Below are positions 1-8,417 of a stretch of DNA of 64,000 nucleotides, in pieces. The translations under genes were made by a program, and so were the position numbers. The DNA is from a phage, in assembly GCA_018995085.1 (NCBI GenBank), contig GCA_018995085.1_3936.1. One strand, written 5' to 3'. Each line of letters opens with the position of its first letter. Position 1 is the first letter of the stretch. A model generated the notes under the pieces. It saw only the letters and a list, made by a program, of their open reading frames with translations. It was not told the DNA's origin and did not search any database.

Positions 1-124
1 AAAAAAATTCCAACCAGTTGGAAAGTACACTACGAAGGACGTTTGCGCAGAATTTATCAGGATGTGCAAAGCAATAGTGCATCGAGTTACATTATAGTAA
101 AAGGTAAAAAACTGCATTTAGTGT

Positions 125-210
125 AAAGTACTTTACAGGGGGTTATCAAGCTGATAAGATAACCCCAGATAAAGAGCTTTACCACTCAATCCTAAATTGG
201 AGATTCTAAA
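125..210 (+). promoter_or_regulatory. second-type intergenic cassette (AAAGTACTTTACA, GGGG..CCCC hairpin, AGATAAAGAGCTTTAC, SD)
   Basis: near-identical flanks at 921-1006; TTTACA-N17-TAAGAT possible promoter overlapping hairpin. Confidence 0.4.
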
Positions 211-615
211 ATGGCTATTAATAACCGTGAATTATCAATCTTAAAAGCACGTTTGACCGTCAACCGGATTAATGTTCTGACATCATCAGCGCCTGATGAG
301 ACATTGCACAACATTATCGGAAAGATTCAAAGTGTTATCTTAGACGTTGAAAACGTAAAAAACTCATTGGCTGACGTTGCAGCAGGTATCACGCTAGACG
401 GTGCGCAATATGAAATGATTGATATGTTAGGCAAATCAAAGGTTATGAATAAAGAGTTAGACCTAAAAATGTTTCGATTTGCCGTGAAAGTATGGCTATC
501 TGTCGAGTATGATGCTAATTTTGCAATCGCTGATTTCTTCGCCACTTGGTTACAACGTAATTTGACAAATCACGATTTTCGTGGCATCTGCGATGCAATT
601 TATGCAGAACTCTAA
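211..615 (+). CDS. hypothetical early protein
   Basis: ORF track; SD-like GGAGA upstream; first of a tandem run of small plus-strand genes. Confidence 0.6.
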   Translation: MAINNRELSILKARLTVNRINVLTSSAPDETLHNIIGKIQSVILDVENVKNSLADVAAGITLDGAQYEMIDMLGKSKVMNKELDLKMFRFAVKVWLSVEYDANFAIADFFATWLQRNLTNHDFRGICDAIYAEL

Positions 616-624
616 AAAATTTTG

Positions 625-718
625 TTGACACTGGTTTTTAGATAGATTAAATTACACATCAACGGGGAGGGAATGACCTTCCCCACTAAATAAAGTCCTT
701 AAACTAGGAGATTCAAAA
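625..718 (+). promoter_or_regulatory. early promoter-stem-loop cassette (TTGACA-N17-TAAATT, leader hairpin GGGGAGGG..CCTTCCCC, SD TAGGAGA)
   Basis: sigma70-like hexamers with 17-nt spacer read directly; about 60-nt leader nearly identical at five sites. Confidence 0.6.
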
Positions 719-922
719 ATGGCTATTATTAACGGTTTAACCATTGAAACTACACACATCAAAGATATCAAAGTTGGTGATATAGTCCTTTCCCACGGCG
801 TAGAAAAAACTGTCACTGCAAAGGATATCAAAGAGGATTCTTTCATGGGTAGGACTCTCTTCGGTGATTCTTATTGCTTAGGTTATCTTGCAGTTTTAAA
901 AGTTGTCAAAATTAACAAATAA
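719..922 (+). CDS. hypothetical small early protein
   Basis: ORF track; preceded by conserved promoter/hairpin/SD cassette. Confidence 0.6.
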   Translation: MAIINGLTIETTHIKDIKVGDIVLSHGVEKTVTAKDIKEDSFMGRTLFGDSYCLGYLAVLKVVKINK

Positions 923-1006
923 AGTACTTTACAAGGGGCTTATAAGTCTGTAAAGTAAGCCCCAGATAAAGAGCTTTACACAATCCTTAAACTAGGAGAT
1001 TCAAAA
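921..1006 (+). promoter_or_regulatory. second-type intergenic cassette, copy 2
   Basis: same flanking sequence as 125-210 with a different hairpin. Confidence 0.4.
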
Positions 1007-1549
1007 ATGAAATGCTATCACGGAACTACTCAAGAAAATTTCCTCAACCTGATTAATAACGGTGATAAACCATCAGGCGCATGGAATTGTTCGGATATGG
1101 ACGGCAATTTTTACGTGTATCCAGAAAATAAAATCTATGGCGACGATGAGGAAGAAATAGCATCAGAAGGTATCCAACAAGCTCTAGGAAATGCCACTAT
1201 CACCGCAGCTTTCCAGATGAAAACCCAAAATATTGTTATCTTAGAACTCGATATTCCAGAGGATGAGCTGAATGATGATTATTCTTGTGATAATATGTCG
1301 AGTGTGGCAAGTTTTACAGAGTACTTTGATGTAAATTGGATTAAAAAGGTCTATACAACAGAGTTTAACGCTATGTATTCACCTTTTTGTCTTCCTTCAT
1401 TGGATAACCCAAATTTAAACTATCTTGATGAGTCTCTGGAGCTTCTTGCTAAAAGTGTTCAACAGTCGGACAGTATTCAGGTTTTTTGTGACATCATGGA
1501 TACACTGACAGGGAACATTGCAGAAGAGGATTTAAAGAGCTTTTTCTAA
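1007..1549 (+). CDS. hypothetical protein
   Basis: ORF track; SD AGGAGA 8 nt upstream; followed by terminator. Confidence 0.65.
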   Translation: MKCYHGTTQENFLNLINNGDKPSGAWNCSDMDGNFYVYPENKIYGDDEEEIASEGIQQALGNATITAAFQMKTQNIVILELDIPEDELNDDYSCDNMSSVASFTEYFDVNWIKKVYTTEFNAMYSPFCLPSLDNPNLNYLDESLELLAKSVQQSDSIQVFCDIMDTLTGNIAEEDLKSFF

Positions 1550-1581
1550 AAACCTATGCAATCACCTTATAAACACTAATC

Positions 1582-1601
1582 AGCCCCTTGTAGGGGCTTT
1601 T
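1582..1601 (+). terminator. Rho-independent terminator (AGCCCCT-tgt-AGGGGCT + TTTT)
   Basis: GC stem plus T-run directly after stop of 1007..1549. Confidence 0.65.
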
Positions 1602-1615
1602 AGGGGGCTTAAATC

Positions 1616-1849
1616 ATGCTTACAACCATTTATCTCATCCTTTCCATTTGTAACGGCCATTCATGCGATTTTAAAGGGCTTGAGGAGTTCACAGGAAGTA
1701 AAGAAAATGCCATTCAAGTTTGTCAGATAGCAAGGCAAGACTATCCCGCCAGTGATGACATACAATGCTACTTTAAGACAGAAGATGAAGAAGGCATTTA
1801 TTTTGATAGTGTTGACGGTCAATATGAAATTATCATTGAAAAAGACTAG
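1616..1849 (+). CDS. hypothetical small protein
   Basis: ORF track. Confidence 0.5.
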   Translation: MLTTIYLILSICNGHSCDFKGLEEFTGSKENAIQVCQIARQDYPASDDIQCYFKTEDEEGIYFDSVDGQYEIIIEKD

Positions 1850-1940
1850 ACAAGCCTGATAAAAGCTTGTAGAGTGTCAATCAACGGGGAGGGAATAACC
1901 TTCCCCACTAAGTAAAGTCCTTAAACTAGGAGATTCTAAA
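1847..1940 (+). promoter_or_regulatory. early promoter-stem-loop cassette, copy 2 (TAGACA-N17-TAGAGT, weaker hexamers)
   Basis: same leader hairpin and SD as copy 1. Confidence 0.5.
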
Positions 1941-2282
1941 ATGGCTTATGTAACTGTAATTACCGATAAAGAGAATTCATCTTGGTCAACTCAGGTTAGT
2001 GATAAGATGTCACCTATGCAGTGTCTAAAATACTTTGAGCAGTGGAACAAAGGCGAGGATGTAAGCCCCTTTCAGGTAATGCAAATCATCCATACAGATA
2101 ACGAAGGGAATAAAACGACACTGAATAGTGAGTACTATGCAAGCCGTTTTGAAACGAGAAGTAAAACAATGAAGCTTTTACGTGAATCCGGCTATTCTCA
2201 CATTGCCGCGCTAATATGGGATGACCTGCTGAAAAGCCAGCGTATCAGCTATGTAAAACCTGAAAAAATATTCATCAGTTAA
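1941..2282 (+). CDS. hypothetical protein
   Basis: ORF track; preceded by conserved cassette. Confidence 0.6.
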   Translation: MAYVTVITDKENSSWSTQVSDKMSPMQCLKYFEQWNKGEDVSPFQVMQIIHTDNEGNKTTLNSEYYASRFETRSKTMKLLRESGYSHIAALIWDDLLKSQRISYVKPEKIFIS

Positions 2283-2410
2283 TCAATAACTTATAAAAAA
2301 CTTTAAAAAATTACTTGACGATACCCCTTGACAATAGTACATTTGTTCGAGGGGTTTATCTAAAAGGGATTCACTTAAAAGATTCTTTATAGATAAGCTT
2401 AAAAAATTGC

Positions 2411-2503
2411 TTGCAATCAACTATCAAAACAAGTAAATTACTAATCAACGGGGAGGCGATAACCTTCCCCACTAAATAAAGTCCTTAAACTAGGAGATTC
2501 AAA
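2411..2503 (+). promoter_or_regulatory. early promoter-stem-loop cassette, copy 3 (TTGCAA-N17-TAAATT)
   Basis: same leader hairpin and SD. Confidence 0.6.
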
Positions 2504-3034
2504 ATGAACAAGTTCAAAGCTATCAACTATATTCGTTCAAATGCTGTAATGTCTAAGCCTGTTAAAGATACCTACGAATTTCGCTGCAACGGTGTACACT
2601 TCGCAACCATCACTAAATCAGAAAACGGGGCTTATTACGTTCATCGTCGTAATGTTTCGACCGTTGTAGTCTCTCACTTTATGCAAGCTGTAGCAGAATT
2701 ATTACCGTTATTCTTAGAGATTTACTTAGATGAGTGTAAAAACGTTCGCAACCATGTTAAAAACCTTTTAAATGGTTATAAGATGGCTTATGAACGTTCT
2801 ATCAAGAATCTTAACAAGTTCTATAAAGCCCCTGAAAATACTGTATCAATAGCTTATGATGTAAGCGGTGAAATGGCCAACCTCTCTAATGTAGAACAAA
2901 TTAGCCTTTATGATTTACGTCCTAGTGGCTACTCTAAGACTCTCGGTGAAGGTTTATCCTTCAATATCAAGAACTTAGAAAAAACTTTAAAAGATATTGA
3001 AAAAGATATTGACGAGACAATCAAAAGTCTGTAA
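2504..3034 (+). CDS. hypothetical protein
   Basis: ORF track; preceded by conserved cassette. Confidence 0.65.
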   Translation: MNKFKAINYIRSNAVMSKPVKDTYEFRCNGVHFATITKSENGAYYVHRRNVSTVVVSHFMQAVAELLPLFLEIYLDECKNVRNHVKNLLNGYKMAYERSIKNLNKFYKAPENTVSIAYDVSGEMANLSNVEQISLYDLRPSGYSKTLGEGLSFNIKNLEKTLKDIEKDIDETIKSL

Positions 3035-3096
3035 ATTGTCAATCAACGGGGGATAACCTCCCCCACTAAACAAAATCCTAAACTGGAGTTATCAAG
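3009..3096 (+). promoter_or_regulatory. early promoter-stem-loop cassette, copy 4 (TTGACG-N17-TAAATT; hairpin variant GGGGGA..TCCCCC)
   Basis: promoter overlaps stop codon of upstream gene. Confidence 0.6.
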
Positions 3097-3360
3097 ATGG
3101 AAAACGTAGAATTAACCACAATTTTACAAATTGCAACCGACAAAGAAGATGTAGCATTATTCCACCGTATCGAAAGCGATTTGTTCAATGGTGAAATCAT
3201 TAAAGAATCTTACGAAGTTGTCGGATTCAAAGATGGTAAAGCATTTGGCTTTTTTGACCTCGACAAAAGCAAAGCGGTTACAATGTACGATGTTCTATCT
3301 TGTGAAATTCTGACAAAATACAACGAAAAAAGGCTTGCAACCTACGCCAATATGCAGTAA
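3097..3360 (+). CDS. hypothetical small protein
   Basis: ORF track; preceded by cassette variant. Confidence 0.6.
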   Translation: MENVELTTILQIATDKEDVALFHRIESDLFNGEIIKESYEVVGFKDGKAFGFFDLDKSKAVTMYDVLSCEILTKYNEKRLATYANMQ

Positions 3361-3428
3361 ATTACTAATCAACGGGGAGGGAATGACCTTCCCCACTAAA
3401 TAAAGTCCTAAACTGGAGATTCTAAATT
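3335..3428 (+). promoter_or_regulatory. early promoter-stem-loop cassette, copy 5 (TTGCAA-N17-TAAATT)
   Basis: same leader hairpin and SD. Confidence 0.6.
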
Positions 3429-3677
3429 ATGTCAACTATCCGCGTAACTGTTAATGCTTATGGCTGCCACCAACTTGATGCAAAATTCGATATCGGTGGA
3501 ACAGATAATACCTTTGACCTTATCAAAATGCTGATTCAGCAGGTGATACCAGATTATAACCCTACTGATGACTTCTGGAAAGATGCCGTAAAAGAAGCCA
3601 TAAACGAGGAATCTCACTACCATTATTGGGGTGACTTGATTATCTCTCTGTACTACAGCAAACAAGGTTACAACTAA
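3429..3677 (+). CDS. hypothetical small protein
   Basis: ORF track; preceded by conserved cassette; followed by hairpins and terminator. Confidence 0.6.
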   Translation: MSTIRVTVNAYGCHQLDAKFDIGGTDNTFDLIKMLIQQVIPDYNPTDDFWKDAVKEAINEESHYHYWGDLIISLYYSKQGYN

Positions 3678-3715
3678 TCGACGCAGCGGGGCTAAATAGC
3701 CCCAGATACCTTTAC

Positions 3716-3738
3716 AGCCCCTTAAATGGGGCTTTTTT
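3716..3738 (+). terminator. Rho-independent terminator (AGCCCC-ttaaat-GGGGCT + TTTTTT)
   Basis: hairpin plus T6; preceded by a second GGGGC..GCCCC hairpin at 3688-3703. Confidence 0.7.
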
Positions 3739-3739
3739 A

Positions 3740-5340
3740 CGTCTATAAAGAACCCTTTCCTTTCCTTCCCAGAATCTATCCCACTAATTCGATAGAGTCT
3801 ATCCCGTACCTTAAAAAGCAATAACTCTATAGTCTACTCTATAACCTCTTATCAAATCAACTTAAATAAAAGCCAATAACCCCAGAAAGGGGATGGCCCA
3901 TTAAAACGCTCTATAAAGCTCTATAACAGCCTTATCAACCTAACTTAAGCAATCATATTAACCCACTCTAAAAAGCCCTTTATAGAGCTTCCCAGAGCCT
4001 TAAAAGAATCTTATAAGGGTGAAAGCTTATAGGCTGATTAGTATCTTGTGAATGGTTAAACAACCCCCTTGCTAGTCACTAAAAAGCATGTTATAGGGGC
4101 TATAAAGTTACTTCAAAGTTACGTAAAAGAGGCTATAAAGTTACGTAAATGCTAGCCCCCTTAACATTTTCTTAACAATTTCTTAACAATCCCTACATAG
4201 TTATGCTTGTTAGCAACTTGTTAGCCCCTTGTTAAATCTCTGTTAAGACCACGTAAAAGCCTTGTAAGAACCTTTGGCATAGCCTTAAAAGCCCCTGTAA
4301 AGCCCTATAAAGAGCTATCCATACAGTTGAGGGGTAAATACTAGGAAGAGGCTTAAAAGAACTTATAAGGGGCTATAGAGAGCTTTTAAGAGGTATGTTT
4401 AGAGAATCACTAAGAAAGGAAGGGAACGATAAGAAAAGAGATAGTGACCATGTTAATAGCTTGTTAAAAAGATTAAACACTTGTTAGAAACTTGTTAATT
4501 ATCTTAACAAAATAACTCTTTAAAATTAACTTGTCAGCTCTTGTTAGTCATCTGTTAAGATTCTGTAAAACCTATTCAGCACTTGTTAGAAAACTGTTAA
4601 GCTCTTGTTAGTTCTGTTAAGAAACTGTTAAGACCTTTGAAGAGTTGTTAAGAGTTTGAGAGAGTTGTTAAGAGATTGTTAAGGATATTTTAAAATTTTG
4701 CAAAGTACTTGTAAGGGAGCTGTTAAGGGCTACCAAGCAGATATACATCTTCTACAGATATTTTTCAGTTCCTTCAAAGACCCTAAAAAATGACTTGATA
4801 GCCCTATTTTATAAAAATTTTAAAATTCTGAATAATTACCTAGACAGTCTTTTAAAAATACAGGTAGAAACAGGCTTATAAGATACCTTGTTAGTACCGT
4901 GTTAGACCTTGTGAGATAAGGTCTGTGAAGATATTCCTGTTAAGTTTGTTAAAACAGTCTATATAGAGGCTTAGTAGTACCTAGTGAACACCTATAGAGG
5001 GTATCATAGCTAACCTAGAGATTAAGAGGTGTATAGGGGCTTCTAAGAGGGTATAGAGAGATGGTTAAGGTGATTGTATAGGTTGTTAAGAAGGATTGTT
5101 AGAAGAGTGTTTAGAGGGCTATTTAGAAGGGTTATACAGAGGGCTATTAAGACCACTAGATAGTTACTAAGATACTATATAGTACTATATAACTATATAG
5201 AGAGTAAGATTAAGAAGGTTGTTAAGAAGGATAGATATTTTATTCACATATGATGGTGACCCAGAGGTTGGGACAACCGATAAAATTTTATAAAAATATA
5301 AATTTCGTAAATTTTACTCAATAAAAAGCCCCCAATTAAG
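3740..5340. repeat. 1.6 kb ORF-free region with three families of short phased direct repeats
   Basis: CTATAAAG/CTTATAAG family (3744-4400); CTTGTTAG/CTGTTAAG family at roughly 10-12 bp spacing (4170-4730); TATAGAGG/TTAAGAAGG family (4960-5230); AT-rich tract 4740-4860. Confidence 0.8.
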
Positions 5341-5357
5341 GAGGCTCTTAAGATATT

Positions 5358-5951
5358 TTAAATCAGTGTTTCCAGAACTGTTTTTAGTGATGACTTGGTT
5401 GTCTGATAAAAATGAGTAAAGCCATTGTTATTATCGAATACCTGCATCATGATATCATCTCCCTTGATTGGGTACACTCGGATATCATAGTGGAAACCAT
5501 TAAAGACACAAGAGCCATTACAGAATGCACTAAAGTCATCCACTGAGATATACTCTTCATGTCCTGTGATTTTTATACAGATACCTTTACTCGGTCTCTT
5601 AGGATTAATATCTTCCATCACAGACATATTCTGTCCACCAAGAGATACCATAGTGACCACTTTACGGTTCTTCTGTCTAAAGTACATCTTAACTTTCTGT
5701 AAAGTATCTTCATAGAACGGATAAGACTTCTCTACAAAGATTCCTTCAAGTGGCTCTTTACCGTTTTTAACTTCTCTGATATGTCTTACTGAGAAGACAA
5801 GCTGCTCTAGTATGTCAAGGCTTTCTTTGGATAATGCTTCTCGAACATCACTCCAGTCAAGAACTAGGTAGTTACCTTCAACTTCTTTTAAGTTATCTTT
5901 TTCCATAGCTATCACACCGTTATCGTAAAACTTGGTAAGCTGGTACTGCAA
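5358..5951 (-). CDS. hypothetical protein (start may be internal Met near 5906)
   Basis: ORF track; overlaps upstream ORF by 32 nt at the listed start. Confidence 0.55.
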   Translation of the reverse strand: MQYQLTKFYDNGVIAMEKDNLKEVEGNYLVLDWSDVREALSKESLDILEQLVFSVRHIREVKNGKEPLEGIFVEKSYPFYEDTLQKVKMYFRQKNRKVVTMVSLGGQNMSVMEDINPKRPSKGICIKITGHEEYISVDDFSAFCNGSCVFNGFHYDIRVYPIKGDDIMMQVFDNNNGFTHFYQTTKSSLKTVLETLI

Positions 5952-6384
5952 ACTTGTTGCTATTGTTCCTAATAAGGTCTTCTTCTGTTACTAAGAATGT
6001 AATCCCACATAAGTGCGTATAGTGGCTGTCATACTCGAATATTTTAAGTAAGTATTTACCATCATGATAAACAGATTCTACTACACCTTTTGCAACAATC
6101 TTTCCAGTCTTGAAGTCTTTAAGAGGGTATGTATTACCAACTTTAGGGACTGTTTTCACTTCAGGTTCTTTTAGCTTCTCACTAGCTTCTACATCACCTA
6201 GTAAGTTAGAACTTTCAAAAGCTCTGAATCTCATATAAGCTTCTGAACATTCCCAGATAAAACAATGTACAAGAACCTTAGCAGCATGTCTTGAGCAATT
6301 CAACTCATCACAGATTTCTTTGTACATTTCATCTTTAGTTGAATTGGTAAGCATTGCTTTTCGAACTGTTTCTTTAATTTTCAT
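5920..6384 (-). CDS. hypothetical protein
   Basis: ORF track. Confidence 0.55.
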   Translation of the reverse strand: MKIKETVRKAMLTNSTKDEMYKEICDELNCSRHAAKVLVHCFIWECSEAYMRFRAFESSNLLGDVEASEKLKEPEVKTVPKVGNTYPLKDFKTGKIVAKGVVESVYHDGKYLLKIFEYDSHYTHLCGITFLVTEEDLIRNNSNKFAVPAYQVLR

Positions 6385-6802
6385 AAGCTCTCCGAATAAC
6401 CCTATTAAGCATCTCTAAAGTCAGCTTTCCAGACTCTAAATGTGGCATAACAAGTTTTAAAGCTTTTTCAACATCATGCACAACATCTATTATACCTTCT
6501 GCATAGGCTTCTACAAGGATATCTTTTACATTTTGTGATTTACCTTTTTGTGGTATCACTAGACGCATATCAAACTTATTTGCTTGAGGATGGTTCTTAC
6601 CTTGCCAATAACCGTCTTTGTTAAAGCTGATGTAGTCACCGTGGTAAAAGTGTACACCATTAGCTTTAAACTTCTCCAGCACAAGGCATTGAATTGGGTA
6701 TTCAGTATTCCACTCCCTGACTCCTATAACCTTCACTGTTGCGATGTACTCCTGTGTTTTTGCATCTATGATGTCAAGTTCTTGACCAGCTATGATTTGC
6801 AT
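6374..6802 (-). CDS. hypothetical protein
   Basis: ORF track. Confidence 0.55.
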   Translation of the reverse strand: MQIIAGQELDIIDAKTQEYIATVKVIGVREWNTEYPIQCLVLEKFKANGVHFYHGDYISFNKDGYWQGKNHPQANKFDMRLVIPQKGKSQNVKDILVEAYAEGIIDVVHDVEKALKLVMPHLESGKLTLEMLNRVIRRAYEN

Positions 6803-6855
6803 ATTCGCTACCTTCTAAGTTTCTACAAAGGGGCTATCAAGTAACCCCTAAGTTA

Positions 6856-7080
6856 TTACTCAGACTTTTCAGTCTTCTTATCGGATTTCTTACTAGTCTT
6901 CTTCTCAGCTTTCTGCTCAGGTTCCTTCTCAGGAGTTGCCTTGATAACCATATCAAGAAGCTCTGATAAGTCACTCTTCAGCAAAGTAACAGGCTGCTCG
7001 TTGTAGAAGTTTTTGTCAAGATAAACTTTAAACTCTTCTATAGAAGGAAATCCAAAAATTGGTACAGGTGTCTTAATCAT
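6856..7080 (-). CDS. hypothetical small lysine-rich protein
   Basis: ORF track. Confidence 0.45.
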   Translation of the reverse strand: MIKTPVPIFGFPSIEEFKVYLDKNFYNEQPVTLLKSDLSELLDMVIKATPEKEPEQKAEKKTSKKSDKKTEKSE

Positions 7081-7156
7081 TACTTAGTCTCTCCATAGGC
7101 ATCTTTTAAGATTGCCTTGTTAATCATTTCAGCGATTGCAAAACGAACACACACAG

Positions 7157-7690
7157 CTATAATTGTAGGTTGCATTCTTTACTTACCTCTTCAAGTTTAA
7201 CCTCAGAATCCTTAAGTCGTTTCTTATGAACCCTGAATCTCATTAGTGAGATGATAATACCAGCTAAAGGAACAGTATACAAGTACCAGATATCATGTAG
7301 CTTTGCAGTAATCTGTGTAATGGTCAAGTCTTGAGCTATGTAGTTGATTGCTGATACGGCTAGCAATGTTGCTAAGAAGAAAACCAGTATCATAACAATA
7401 TTCAGACAACCTCTGGCGTGGTATTCATGCTTAATGCACTTATTCTTCTCTTCAACAACCCTGTTGTAGTCATTTGTAAAGTCTCTGTAGAAAGCTTTCA
7501 AGTATTCTTGATTGTAGCCTTCAAAGCAACCTGTACCATACCAATAATCACCACCAAAATGTGCTATGATACCAGTATCTCCATTTGGTTTGGTTACTCT
7601 TAAAGAAGTATGATGACGAGTATCCTGGTAATCTATCTTATATCTCTCTTCAAAAATCATTTTCCAACCCCTCTCAATCGTTTGTTCCAT
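7157..7690 (-). CDS. putative membrane protein
   Basis: long hydrophobic segments (LNIVMILVFFLATLLAVSAINYI, YLYTVPLAGIIISL); start may be an internal Met. Confidence 0.5.
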   Translation of the reverse strand: MEQTIERGWKMIFEERYKIDYQDTRHHTSLRVTKPNGDTGIIAHFGGDYWYGTGCFEGYNQEYLKAFYRDFTNDYNRVVEEKNKCIKHEYHARGCLNIVMILVFFLATLLAVSAINYIAQDLTITQITAKLHDIWYLYTVPLAGIIISLMRFRVHKKRLKDSEVKLEEVSKECNLQL

Positions 7691-7875
7691 TCAAGGTCAA
7701 CAAATCTTTGCAGGACTTTCCCTCTAGGTGTTACACCTTTTAAATCTGCATCGTAACAATGGTAAAAGTCACCTTCAGCATGTTTACCATAGCATTTTCT
7801 GATATTCTGGCTTCTGCGATACTGTTCTAACAAGGACAGTTTGTAGTAATCTTCAACTGTAGTTAGTTTTTTCAT
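7657..7875 (-). CDS. hypothetical small protein
   Basis: ORF track. Confidence 0.4.
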   Translation of the reverse strand: MKKLTTVEDYYKLSLLEQYRRSQNIRKCYGKHAEGDFYHCYDADLKGVTPRGKVLQRFVDLEWNKRLRGVGK

Positions 7876-8417
7876 TCTTTCACCATAGCATTTCTGAACT
7901 GACGTTGTGTTTCTCTTGTAATTTCGTTTGGAGTAAACCCTGCTTTTAGCATATCTCTGAAAAGAACTTCTAAATGGTTCCTCTCAATGATGTGAATGGC
8001 ATTCTGAATAGCTGTTTTGCGCTCCTTCAGGTCACTACTAATCTCCTCGCACTTACTGGTAAGTTCTGTGTCAACTTTCTTATAGACTGGCATAACATGT
8101 GCGTAGCAACCTTTATTAGTCTCCATGAAAAATTTAAAAGATTCTTCAGAGTCCTTTAGAGCAATCCCTATAAAGTTCTTGTAAGCACCTGTGAAAGATA
8201 AAGACTCAATCTCAGCAGTTGAGTATACAGTCCCTGCACACAGCCTTGCAGAAGTACTAAATGTGTGGTTTGGTGTCATGTCAAAATCTAAGTTCTTCAG
8301 TGGCCTGAAATAAACAATACCGTTGTGTGAGATATGTGTTACAACAGCCTCAACACTCTTTGACGGATTCTGTTTAACGTACAAAATTATTTTATCTTTT
8401 TCTTTCACTGTAGCCAT
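7872..8417 (-). CDS. hypothetical protein
   Basis: ORF track. Confidence 0.55.
   Translation of the reverse strand: MATVKEKDKIILYVKQNPSKSVEAVVTHISHNGIVYFRPLKNLDFDMTPNHTFSTSARLCAGTVYSTAEIESLSFTGAYKNFIGIALKDSEESFKFFMETNKGCYAHVMPVYKKVDTELTSKCEEISSDLKERKTAIQNAIHIIERNHLEVLFRDMLKAGFTPNEITRETQRQFRNAMVKE

Follow-up and report, generated by a model that had tools for sequence, protein, structure and literature searches.

Within the first 3.5 kb of a 64,000-nt stretch of phage DNA (NCBI GenBank assembly GCA_018995085.1, contig GCA_018995085.1_3936.1; hereafter the window, meaning the whole stretch at its full length), nearly the same sequence recurs in front of five small genes. This raises the question of what the repeated sequence is, and what it does for the genes that follow it. 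[quoted passage not shown] The window belongs to a Felix O1-like myovirus (Felixounavirus). Its best match is Escherichia phage vB_EcoM-Pr103Blw, to which the cassette and three small proteins are 99-100% identical, and its first 8 kb is matched at ~88-92% identity by 258 phage records, nearly all of them Felix O1-like myoviruses of Escherichia, Salmonella, Shigella and Citrobacter.

All type A cassettes share one layout: an A-tract, TTGnnn, 17 nt, TAnnnT, 10 nt, a G/C hairpin of 6-8 bp, 20-22 nt, GGAG, 5-9 nt and ATG. An earlier note on this DNA had placed five such sites at 625, 1847, 2411, 3009 and 3335, and all five are found there on the + strand. Cassette 1 (611-721), which precedes a 67-aa gene (719-922), is made up of an A-tract (616-621), a -35 hexamer TTGACA (625-630), a -10 hexamer TAAATT (648-653), TCAAC (659-663), the hairpin (664-684), GGAG (707-710) and ATG at 719; the stop codon of the upstream gene (613-615) lies 9 nt before the -35. 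In cassette 2 (1838-1943), located before the 113-aa gene 1941-2282, the hexamers are TAGACA (1847-1852), in which TAG doubles as the stop of gene 1616-1849, and TAGAGT (1870-1875), followed by TCAAC (1881-1885), the hairpin (1886-1906), GGAG (1929-1932) and ATG at 1941. Cassette 3 (2400-2506), before the 176-aa gene 2504-3034, contains an A-tract (2401-2406), TTGCAA (2411-2416), TAAATT (2434-2439), TCAAC (2445-2449), the hairpin (2450-2470), GGAG (2493-2496) and ATG at 2504. The two remaining copies begin inside the preceding gene. Cassette 4 (3000-3099), with TTGACG (3009-3014), TAAATT (3032-3037), TCAAC (3043-3047), a short hairpin GGGGGA/TCCCCC (3048-3064), GGAG (3085-3088) and ATG at 3097, serves the 87-aa gene 3097-3360; its -35 falls within the 3' end of gene 2504-3034 and the TAA of its -10 is the stop codon of that gene. 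The same arrangement is seen in cassette 5 (3326-3431), where the -35 TTGCAA (3335-3340) lies in the 3' end of gene 3097-3360 and the TAA of the -10 TAAATT (3358-3363) is its stop; TCAAC (3369-3373), the hairpin (3374-3394), GGAG (3415-3418) and the ATG (3429) of the 82-aa gene 3429-3677 follow.

Four of the copies thus carry TAAATT and the copy at 1847 has the pair TAGACA/TAGAGT, as the earlier note had described. All five have a 17-nt spacer, and in each of them 10 nt separate the -10 from the first base of the stem. The 8-bp hairpin described for every site holds for three copies, with one G.U among the eight pairs, and not for those at 2450-2470 (7 bp, or 8 bp with a bulge) and 3048-3064 (6 bp). 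A 39-nt core of the cassette is found with at most 3 mismatches at four sites, against 0.00 expected. When a covariance model of TCAAC, hairpin and tail was run over the whole 64 kb with filters off, exactly five matches were obtained (E from 4e-11 to 3e-5), and the next-best match in the window had an E of 0.79. The five type A cassettes, together with two copies of a second family (type B, described below), are located within 1-3700, and the other 60 kb of the window contains no copy of either type. The hairpin is the dominant predicted structure in all five type A copies, its stem alone giving -10 to -14 kcal/mol, and in all window copies some of the Shine-Dalgarno (SD) sequence sits inside a second, weak pairing, UCC(U)/(A)GGA. 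In cassette 1 all three frames are closed before the SD (TGA 626, TAA 648, TAA 691), so that an upstream open reading frame (ORF) joined there would terminate within the cassette. The SD leader itself (696-718 and its equivalents) occurs in two forms, CCT-TAAACT-AGG and CC-TAAACT-GG, which account for 87 and 202 of 289 distinct contexts over all loci and are never mixed. The extra T and A of the former would pair in a small hairpin that holds the SD, and the two forms may be either a paired indel or two alleles spread through recombination.

For comparison we collected 54 type A cassettes from ten phages of the genera Felixounavirus, Mooglevirus and Suspvirus (Ounavirinae) and anchored them on TCAAC; the block sequences were taken from nine annotated relatives in the three genera, plus further IMG/VR contigs. 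Mean information per position was 1.28 bit for the -35, 1.52 for the -10 and 0.43 for the spacer, and conservation was highest for TCAAC (1.74 bit). TTG and TA...T hardly vary, 53 of the 54 copies have a 17-nt spacer, and a run of A is situated near -42, the position of an UP element. The spacers of paralogous cassettes are unrelated to one another (several are the coding ends of upstream genes), which argues that the hexamers and their spacing are kept by selection and were not merely copied. Nine of the loci reach back to the start of the block, and in every one of them the cassette that comes first after terminator t13 is of type A and its promoter is near consensus (TTGACT/TTGACA-N17-TAGTAT/TACTAT, with an A/T-rich stretch upstream). 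The -10 is mostly TAAATT in Felixounavirus and mostly TAAAGT in Mooglevirus and Suspvirus copies; concerted evolution, by which copies are homogenised within lineages, is visible in these lineage-specific forms. Judged by sequence, the type A hexamers are very probably promoters used by the host RNA polymerase with sigma70.

The hairpin was analyzed in the same set. In the first set, each of the 49 distinct leaders forms a hairpin immediately behind TCAAC or TCAGAC, and the stem starts 10 nt after the -10 (11 with TCAGAC) in each of the 54 copies, in all three genera. When IMG/VR contigs were included, 119 distinct leaders yielded 44 hairpin alleles, whose stems (GGGGAGGG/CCTTCCCC, GGGAGG/CCTCCC, GGGGGA/TCCCCC, GGGAAGG/CCTTCCC, GGGGC/GCCCC, GGGA/TCCC and GGGC/GCCC) vary in register and composition and whose loops of 4-14 nt include GNRA tetraloops (GAAA, GAGA), AAUGA, GAUAA, AAGCAA and others. 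Native 5' and 3' halves pair at -9.3 kcal/mol versus -7.0 for inter-allele chimeras, and none of 2000 permutations was equally good. The stems hold 20 G.U pairs versus one A.C, a ratio that favors a structure on the + (mRNA) strand. From these alleles, conservation of a hairpin at this place in type A is clear, whereas covariation in the formal sense was not demonstrated. One oddity was observed in phage fjerdesal (locus L001, 1261-1307), where the first-cassette hairpin reads GGGGGGGGGGGGGAAATGCCGGACCCC with a run of 13 G and another cassette is preceded by a run of 12 A; both runs are probably homopolymer sequencing errors.

Conservation among relatives, on which the earlier note had staked its reading beforehand, is broad: 247 phage records carry the type A cassette, with 1-9 matching places listed per record. 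An IMG/VR scan with the 14-nt leader returned Ounavirinae contigs and many single chance matches but no evident carrier from any other group. The block of phage AYO145A extends from t13 to t23 and comprises 14 small genes, almost all of which follow a cassette of 62-103 nt (seven type A, five type B), unlike the genes upstream of t13, which abut or overlap. Clustering of proteins from ten loci delimited a block of 9-18 genes between conserved and collinear flanks, and the hyperplastic region that the earlier note had proposed is thereby supported, together with swaps of cassette type and with hybrid junctions. For example, families 15-9-6 and 7-13 are missing in Si3, family 13 is missing in FO1a and CHB7, and family 23 is found only in HMD-P10, and families 2, 3, 10 and 17 are preceded by type A in some phages and by type B in others. 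Three deletion junctions in FO1a and Si3 are hybrid cassettes, to which one copy has contributed the promoter half and another copy the leader half. The family 3 leader of FO1a is joined to the promoter half normally located before family 13. In Si3 family 2 is joined to the promoter half of the family 15 cassette, and the crossover of a second deletion lies in the heptamer ATCAAAA, common to two promoter spacers, and left the only 18-nt spacer of the set. An insertion was also detected: in HMD-P10 an extra gene stands after a cassette and the SD leader is duplicated. Promoter halves were in addition exchanged without gene loss, as seen in the family 8 and 15 cassettes when FO1a and Si3 are compared with HMD-P10. 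The occurrence of single genes also varies, with gene 211 present in 234 records, gene 719 in ~180 (at 60% identity or more) and the 87-aa gene 3097 in 123. The 67-aa protein encoded at 719-922 has homologs of ~50% identity in unrelated lytic phages, among them T4-like Straboviridae (e.g., Citrobacter phage Miller, where it is found among small genes next to denV), T1-like siphoviruses of ~50 kb and a Vibrio phage, and its gene appears to be a widely travelled one.

Previous studies described PeSLs as cassettes of T4-type phages, with an anatomy that includes a subclass in which the stem-loop follows the -10 (Arbiol et al. 2010, PMC2839356; Comeau et al. 2014, PMC4122927); the stem-loop is often polyG/polyC and occupies one of five positions relative to the promoter (PMC2839356). 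The likeness in form that the earlier note had drawn is borne out, with a promoter and A-tract, a stem-loop after the -10, a stop codon at the 5' end of the unit and an SD and start codon at its 3' end. In common with PeSLs, the elements described here have sigma70-like -35 and -10 hexamers and an A/T-rich upstream region (predicted here, in 53 of 54 copies), a stable stem-loop of a G-run and a C-run with subclasses downstream of the -10 (type A) or overlapping it (type B), and the boundaries just mentioned. Many copies are clustered in a hyperplastic region before genes of unknown function, and indels between relatives end in cassettes (here three junctions and one insertion). As these five sequence features of PeSLs are all present, the analogy with the T4-type elements holds. 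There are also differences. The host is an 86-89-kb Ounavirinae myovirus, whereas the original description concerned Straboviridae, a restriction that is a taxonomic limit of that description and not a mechanistic criterion. There are ~10-16 copies in a single block of 6-7 kb, compared with ~50 over several regions in T4-type phages, and the whole 5' leader and RBS are standardised as well. Finally, the stem lacks a U-tract and by its sequence does not resemble a terminator, whereas terminator activity has been shown for a PeSL. Recombination between nearby PeSL copies, which yields encapsidated mini-circles, is a published trait of these elements. In our full-text literature search, no paper was found in which Felix O1-like phages are connected with PeSLs. 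When the genome of Felix O1 was published (2010; PMC3185647), both main repeats were listed as plain direct repeats and given no function, other genome papers on such phages report only generic promoter predictions or direct repeats, and one copy of the cassette carries a promoter annotation in GenBank record NC_028825.

The five type A cassettes sit at the end of a + strand unit that in Felix O1 begins at rIIA. The window contains eight small genes of this region, all on the + strand and of unknown function (211-615, 719-922, 1007-1549, 1616-1849, 1941-2282, 2504-3034, 3097-3360 and 3429-3677), which represent the distal part of the hyperplastic block, its start lying upstream of the window. 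Searches of all eight proteins against Pfam and PHROGs returned unknown function only. The block is closed by an intrinsic terminator on the + strand, AGCCCCTTAAATGGGGCT followed by TTTTTT (3716-3739; listed as 3716-3733 by the terminator scan), which is the positional counterpart of Felix O1 t23. The genes behind the type A cassettes are not all consecutive, contrary to what the earlier note had stated, because genes 1007 and 1616 intervene; they are preceded by a type B cassette and a terminator-like hairpin, respectively.

Type B, which is interleaved with type A, had been absent from the earlier note. It follows the pattern (A)AAGTACTTTACA, 17 nt, TAnnnT, ..CCCCAGATAAAGAGCTTTAC, and has the same SD leader as type A. 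One of the two window copies (123-213, + strand) precedes the 134-aa gene 211-615, has TTTACA at 132-137 and TAAGAT at 155-160, and forms a stem over 123-182 on the + strand (123-129/176-182, 131-135/170-174 and 139-147/158-166). The other (920-1009, + strand) precedes the 180-aa gene 1007-1549, with TTTACA at 928-933, TAAAGT at 951-956 and a + strand stem over 920-978 (920-925/973-978, 927-931/967-971 and 935-943/955-963). Both fold into an interrupted stem of ~21 bp around the promoter-like hexamers (z = -3.5 and -3.0). TTTACA is invariant in type B, and the -10 takes the forms TAAGAT, TAAAGT, TATCTT, TATGAT, TAGTAT and TAATAT, in which the three key sigma70 positions are kept; the exceptions are one TAAAGC and one 18-nt spacer. 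Related loci contain 95 distinct copies of type B. One outer pair of the stem is G-C (74), U-A (11) or A-U (1), inner pairs switch between U-A and A-U (74/21 and 17/71), and as many as four pair types occur at one position. Overall, 84.9% of cells pair, versus 41-51% when the partner is slid, and the frequent U.G pairs would be A.C mismatches on the opposite strand. These counts show clear covariation in the type B stem, which, given its position, should be able to form only in read-through RNA. A single stretch would thus appear to have two functions, that of a promoter in the DNA and that of a structure in the RNA, the latter possibly a site of the RNase III type. Of the two families, type B, with a promoter inside a covarying RNA stem, is the more interesting lead.

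Three further elements were detected in the gaps of the block. The 77-aa gene 1616-1849 (family 6) follows an element at 1582-1618 (+ strand; AGCCCC-TTGT-AGGGGCT, then TTT) that has a different SD, a terminator-like hairpin and no promoter-like hexamers. An extra promoter-like site, TTGACG-N17-TACATT (2315-2352, + strand), in which an 8-bp inverted repeat (CCCCTTGA/TCGAGGGG) spans the -10, is located within the 221-nt gap upstream of cassette 3 and has no ORF directly after it; Mooglevirus relatives have a 46-aa gene in the equivalent gap. Directly before the block terminator, at 3688-3715, there is a gene-less remnant resembling type B (GGGGCTAAATAGCCCC AGATACCTTTAC).

Several other identities were considered for the type A elements. 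An intrinsic terminator was ruled out, as the stem is followed by no U-tract (its tail is ACUAAAUAAAG) and the terminator scan called none of the five hairpins. RNase III hairpins of T7 (R0.3 to R1.3) are likewise intercistronic stems of an early operon, and type B, with ~21 bp, fits their length class, but the type B stem holds a promoter, which the T7 sites do not, and the type A stem of 6-8 bp is too short for an RNase III site, for which ~20 bp (two helical turns) is needed. A T4 middle promoter with a MotA box was considered for GCTTGCAA; MotA boxes are located 11-13 bp from the -10, and this word is ~18 bp away. An N4-type hairpin promoter for a virion RNA polymerase was dropped, since the hairpins follow canonical sigma70 boxes; that Felix O1 is reported to encode no RNA polymerase (PMC3185647) was also counted against it. 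A scan of positions 1-8000 against Rfam at E <=1 gave only a chance microRNA match on the minus strand (22 bits versus a gathering score of 104).

How could a type A cassette work? In the mechanism we favor, each unit would provide a host sigma70 promoter, with the A-tract near -42. E. coli RNA polymerase starts most often 7 nt after the -10 and prefers a purine that follows a pyrimidine; for this reason the predicted start is the CA of TCAAC, at a distance of 7-8 nt from the -10. AAC or AC would accordingly be the first bases of the mRNA, leaving 2-3 free nt before the stem, and the stem would be followed by an A-rich spacer of ~22 nt, the RBS CCT(T)AAACT(A)GGAG, 5-9 nt and the ATG. The most likely role of the hairpin, we infer, is to shield the 5' end of its own transcript from decay by RppH and then RNase E. 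RppH and the 5' sensor of RNase E need single-stranded 5' ends (PMC3997798), and this explains the stabilising effect of 5' stem-loops on certain mRNAs, ompA and papA among them. The 5' untranslated region stabilisers of these two genes (Emory, Bouvet and Belasco 1992, via PMC3997798) resemble type A in that the hairpin is located a few nt from the (here predicted) 5' end and is followed by an unstructured leader and a strong RBS, and both would act by denying RppH and RNase E a single-stranded 5' end; type A differs in that its 5' end is only predicted and in that the element is repeated and modular and not confined to one gene. The 5'-end role is preferred because the geometry has remained fixed through full turnover of the stem sequence in three genera, and the role in transcript stability or translation that the earlier note had suggested for the hairpin is plausible. 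The hairpin may have a second role in read-through transcripts, that of a weak attenuator or of a 3' barrier. With this unit of 60-100 nt repeated before most genes of the block, in alternation with type B, recombination between copies would homogenise them within a lineage and would delete, insert and re-pair whole genes.

A number of observations weigh against this explanation. In a covariance-model alignment of 127 matches, the formal pair count for type A gave 93.7% pairing and 0 double-sided changes (a plain MAFFT alignment of the leaders mis-registers hairpins of unequal length and is unfit for such counts). Type A pairing showed no excess over shuffled controls, and with the 3' partner slid by -1 or -2 it was still 90-93%, because the arms are G-runs and C-runs. 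As the pair count is null, the case for structural selection on the type A stem is built on allele turnover and the chimera test, and the latter is weakened by the fact that its alleles are related by descent. The hairpin is absent upstream of family 22 in Sf18 and degenerate in two EcSzw-2 copies and is therefore not essential. A consensus promoter scan of 8 kb gave 33 promoter-like sites versus 24.7 expected, which puts matches of single sequences close to chance and makes them weak evidence; it found the copies at 625, 1847 and 3009, those at 2411 and 3335 (8 of 12 matches) were below threshold, and each hexamer matches the consensus at only 4-5 of 6 positions. The type B stem is situated upstream of the predicted start, which favors intergenic hairpins acting in read-through RNA and not at 5' ends. 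Moreover, a free 5' end of 2-3 nt may suffice for RppH. Reverse transcription PCR in Felix O1 revealed no uniform early timing of the block, ORFs 16, 20, 21 and 22 peaking at 5 min and ORFs 14, 17, 19 and 23 of the same block at 25 min (PMC3185647), so that the term early, as used in the earlier note, fits the former group and not the latter. The literature searched reported neither transcription starts nor transcript stability for any Felix O1-like phage, and our searches, one of which was poorly targeted, found no Felixounavirus transcriptome or start-site map.

The position of the type B stem leads to the most serious rival, which we regard as a real possibility though not the favored one. 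In this explanation the hairpin acts on RNA that arrives from upstream, either as a terminator or attenuator that insulates the genes or as a 3' barrier by which the upstream message is protected once an endonuclease has cut the A/U-rich single-stranded sequence after the hairpin; the promoter would be genuine, and the position of the hairpin relative to the start incidental. A stem is indeed found in nearly every intergenic gap of the block, whatever its place relative to the promoter: after the start in type A, over the -10 in type B and with no promoter at all before gene 1616. The type B stem covaries although it would form only in read-through RNA, and a PeSL stem-loop was reported to cut lacZ expression as strongly as rrnB T1 (PMC2839356). 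However, the type A stem lacks the U-tract and escaped the terminator scan in all five copies, as noted above, and pure read-through would not require so constant a stem start, which in all 54 copies lies 10-11 nt from the -10. The 3'-barrier or attenuator role and the 5'-end role are not mutually exclusive.

It is unlikely that the block has no internal promoters at all and is transcribed from its first promoter as one long message, in which the repeats would be intercistronic hairpin and RBS signals and the hexamers by-products of A/T-rich sequence or of coding ends. Promoter-like words are common by chance, as the consensus scan indicated, two of the copies match at just 8 of 12 positions, and TCAAC, the hairpin and the SD leader are more conserved than the hexamers. 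Such by-products would not be expected, however, to keep TTG, TA...T and 17-nt spacing in 53 of 54 copies around spacers that hold 0.43 bit and are unrelated, coding or not, nor to retain three key positions in an otherwise variable type B -10 or an A-tract at the UP-element position.

Somewhat more doubtful still is the idea that the hairpin and TCAAC form the site of a phage or host protein, such as an N-like antiterminator that would load onto RNA polymerase and carry it past the terminators of the block, or a translational repressor that would turn off the early genes. TCAAC is the most conserved element, the hairpin is located just past the promoter as in nut and put sites, and the passage of transcription through the many terminators of Felix O1 was left open in its genome paper (PMC3185647). 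The nut site of lambda (boxA and boxB) is similar in that a small hairpin is transcribed shortly after an early promoter and the phage has numerous intrinsic terminators; in the elements studied here, by contrast, there is no conserved loop and no boxA, the stem is free to vary and there are five to seven copies per operon. Since neither stem nor loop is conserved in sequence (44 alleles) and one copy has no hairpin, sequence-specific recognition by a protein is unlikely. Neither an Rfam match nor a boxA-like motif was seen, and the only terminator called in the part of the block within the window is the one at its end. That the repeats play no part in regulation and are selfish or neutral DNA, whether miniature mobile elements or what is left of tandem duplications, is highly improbable, for although there are many near-identical copies per genome and the Felix O1 genome paper had only direct repeats (PMC3185647), every copy is on the coding strand, begins at the stop of the prior ORF and ends in SD and ATG, none lies elsewhere in the window or on the other strand, and the architecture is kept across three genera.

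Other repeats were observed outside the cassettes. The non-coding gap at 3740-5330 contains, at 4172-5225, 27 of the window's 101 YTGTTAR heptamers within 1 kb, mostly on the + strand and often 11 nt apart (4207/4218/4229/4240, 4583/4594/4605, 4665/4676), with GGGGCTATAAAG-like short repeats nearby. This array between convergent units looks like iterons and is a candidate origin, packaging or regulator-binding region. In AYO145A (locus L002, 8400-8600), in a region corresponding to sequence upstream of the window's left end, 4-5 copies of TTTTCA..A.TGTGCAGGTA fall in the 520-nt gap from t13 to the first cassette and may be candidate binding sites that control the first promoter of the block. 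Three tandem repeats of ~249 nt in a coding region (11022-11607; repeat families D7 and D9) would fit a structural protein with repeated domains of 83 aa.

Salmonella typing makes use of Felix O1-like phages, which have also been proposed for biocontrol and therapy and whose transcription programme is undescribed. If the type A cassettes contain internal promoters, as proposed here, the result is a predicted start-site map for ~250 sequenced genomes. The block is also the one place where accessory genes, probably of host take-over or anti-defence, are exchanged. The cassette itself is a compact natural expression unit, which makes it a predictable site for engineering and equally a predictable site of unwanted recombination between co-infecting therapeutic phages. 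A more tentative and rather speculative extension is that the block is a gene-cassette system of universal adaptors, in which any small gene that is inserted would be expressed at once and type B would insulate neighboring genes through its dual role in DNA and RNA, its read-through stem being cut by RNase III or stalling decay. Genes could then be excised, reordered and passed to unrelated phages (compare gene 719). For a phage specialist our findings are useful and unsurprising, as the PeSL kind of cassette is already known from T4-type phages, and its occurrence outside T4-like phages is the new part. The sequences analyzed here suggest that recombination-driven gene shuffling in the PeSL mode is not restricted to T4-like phages.

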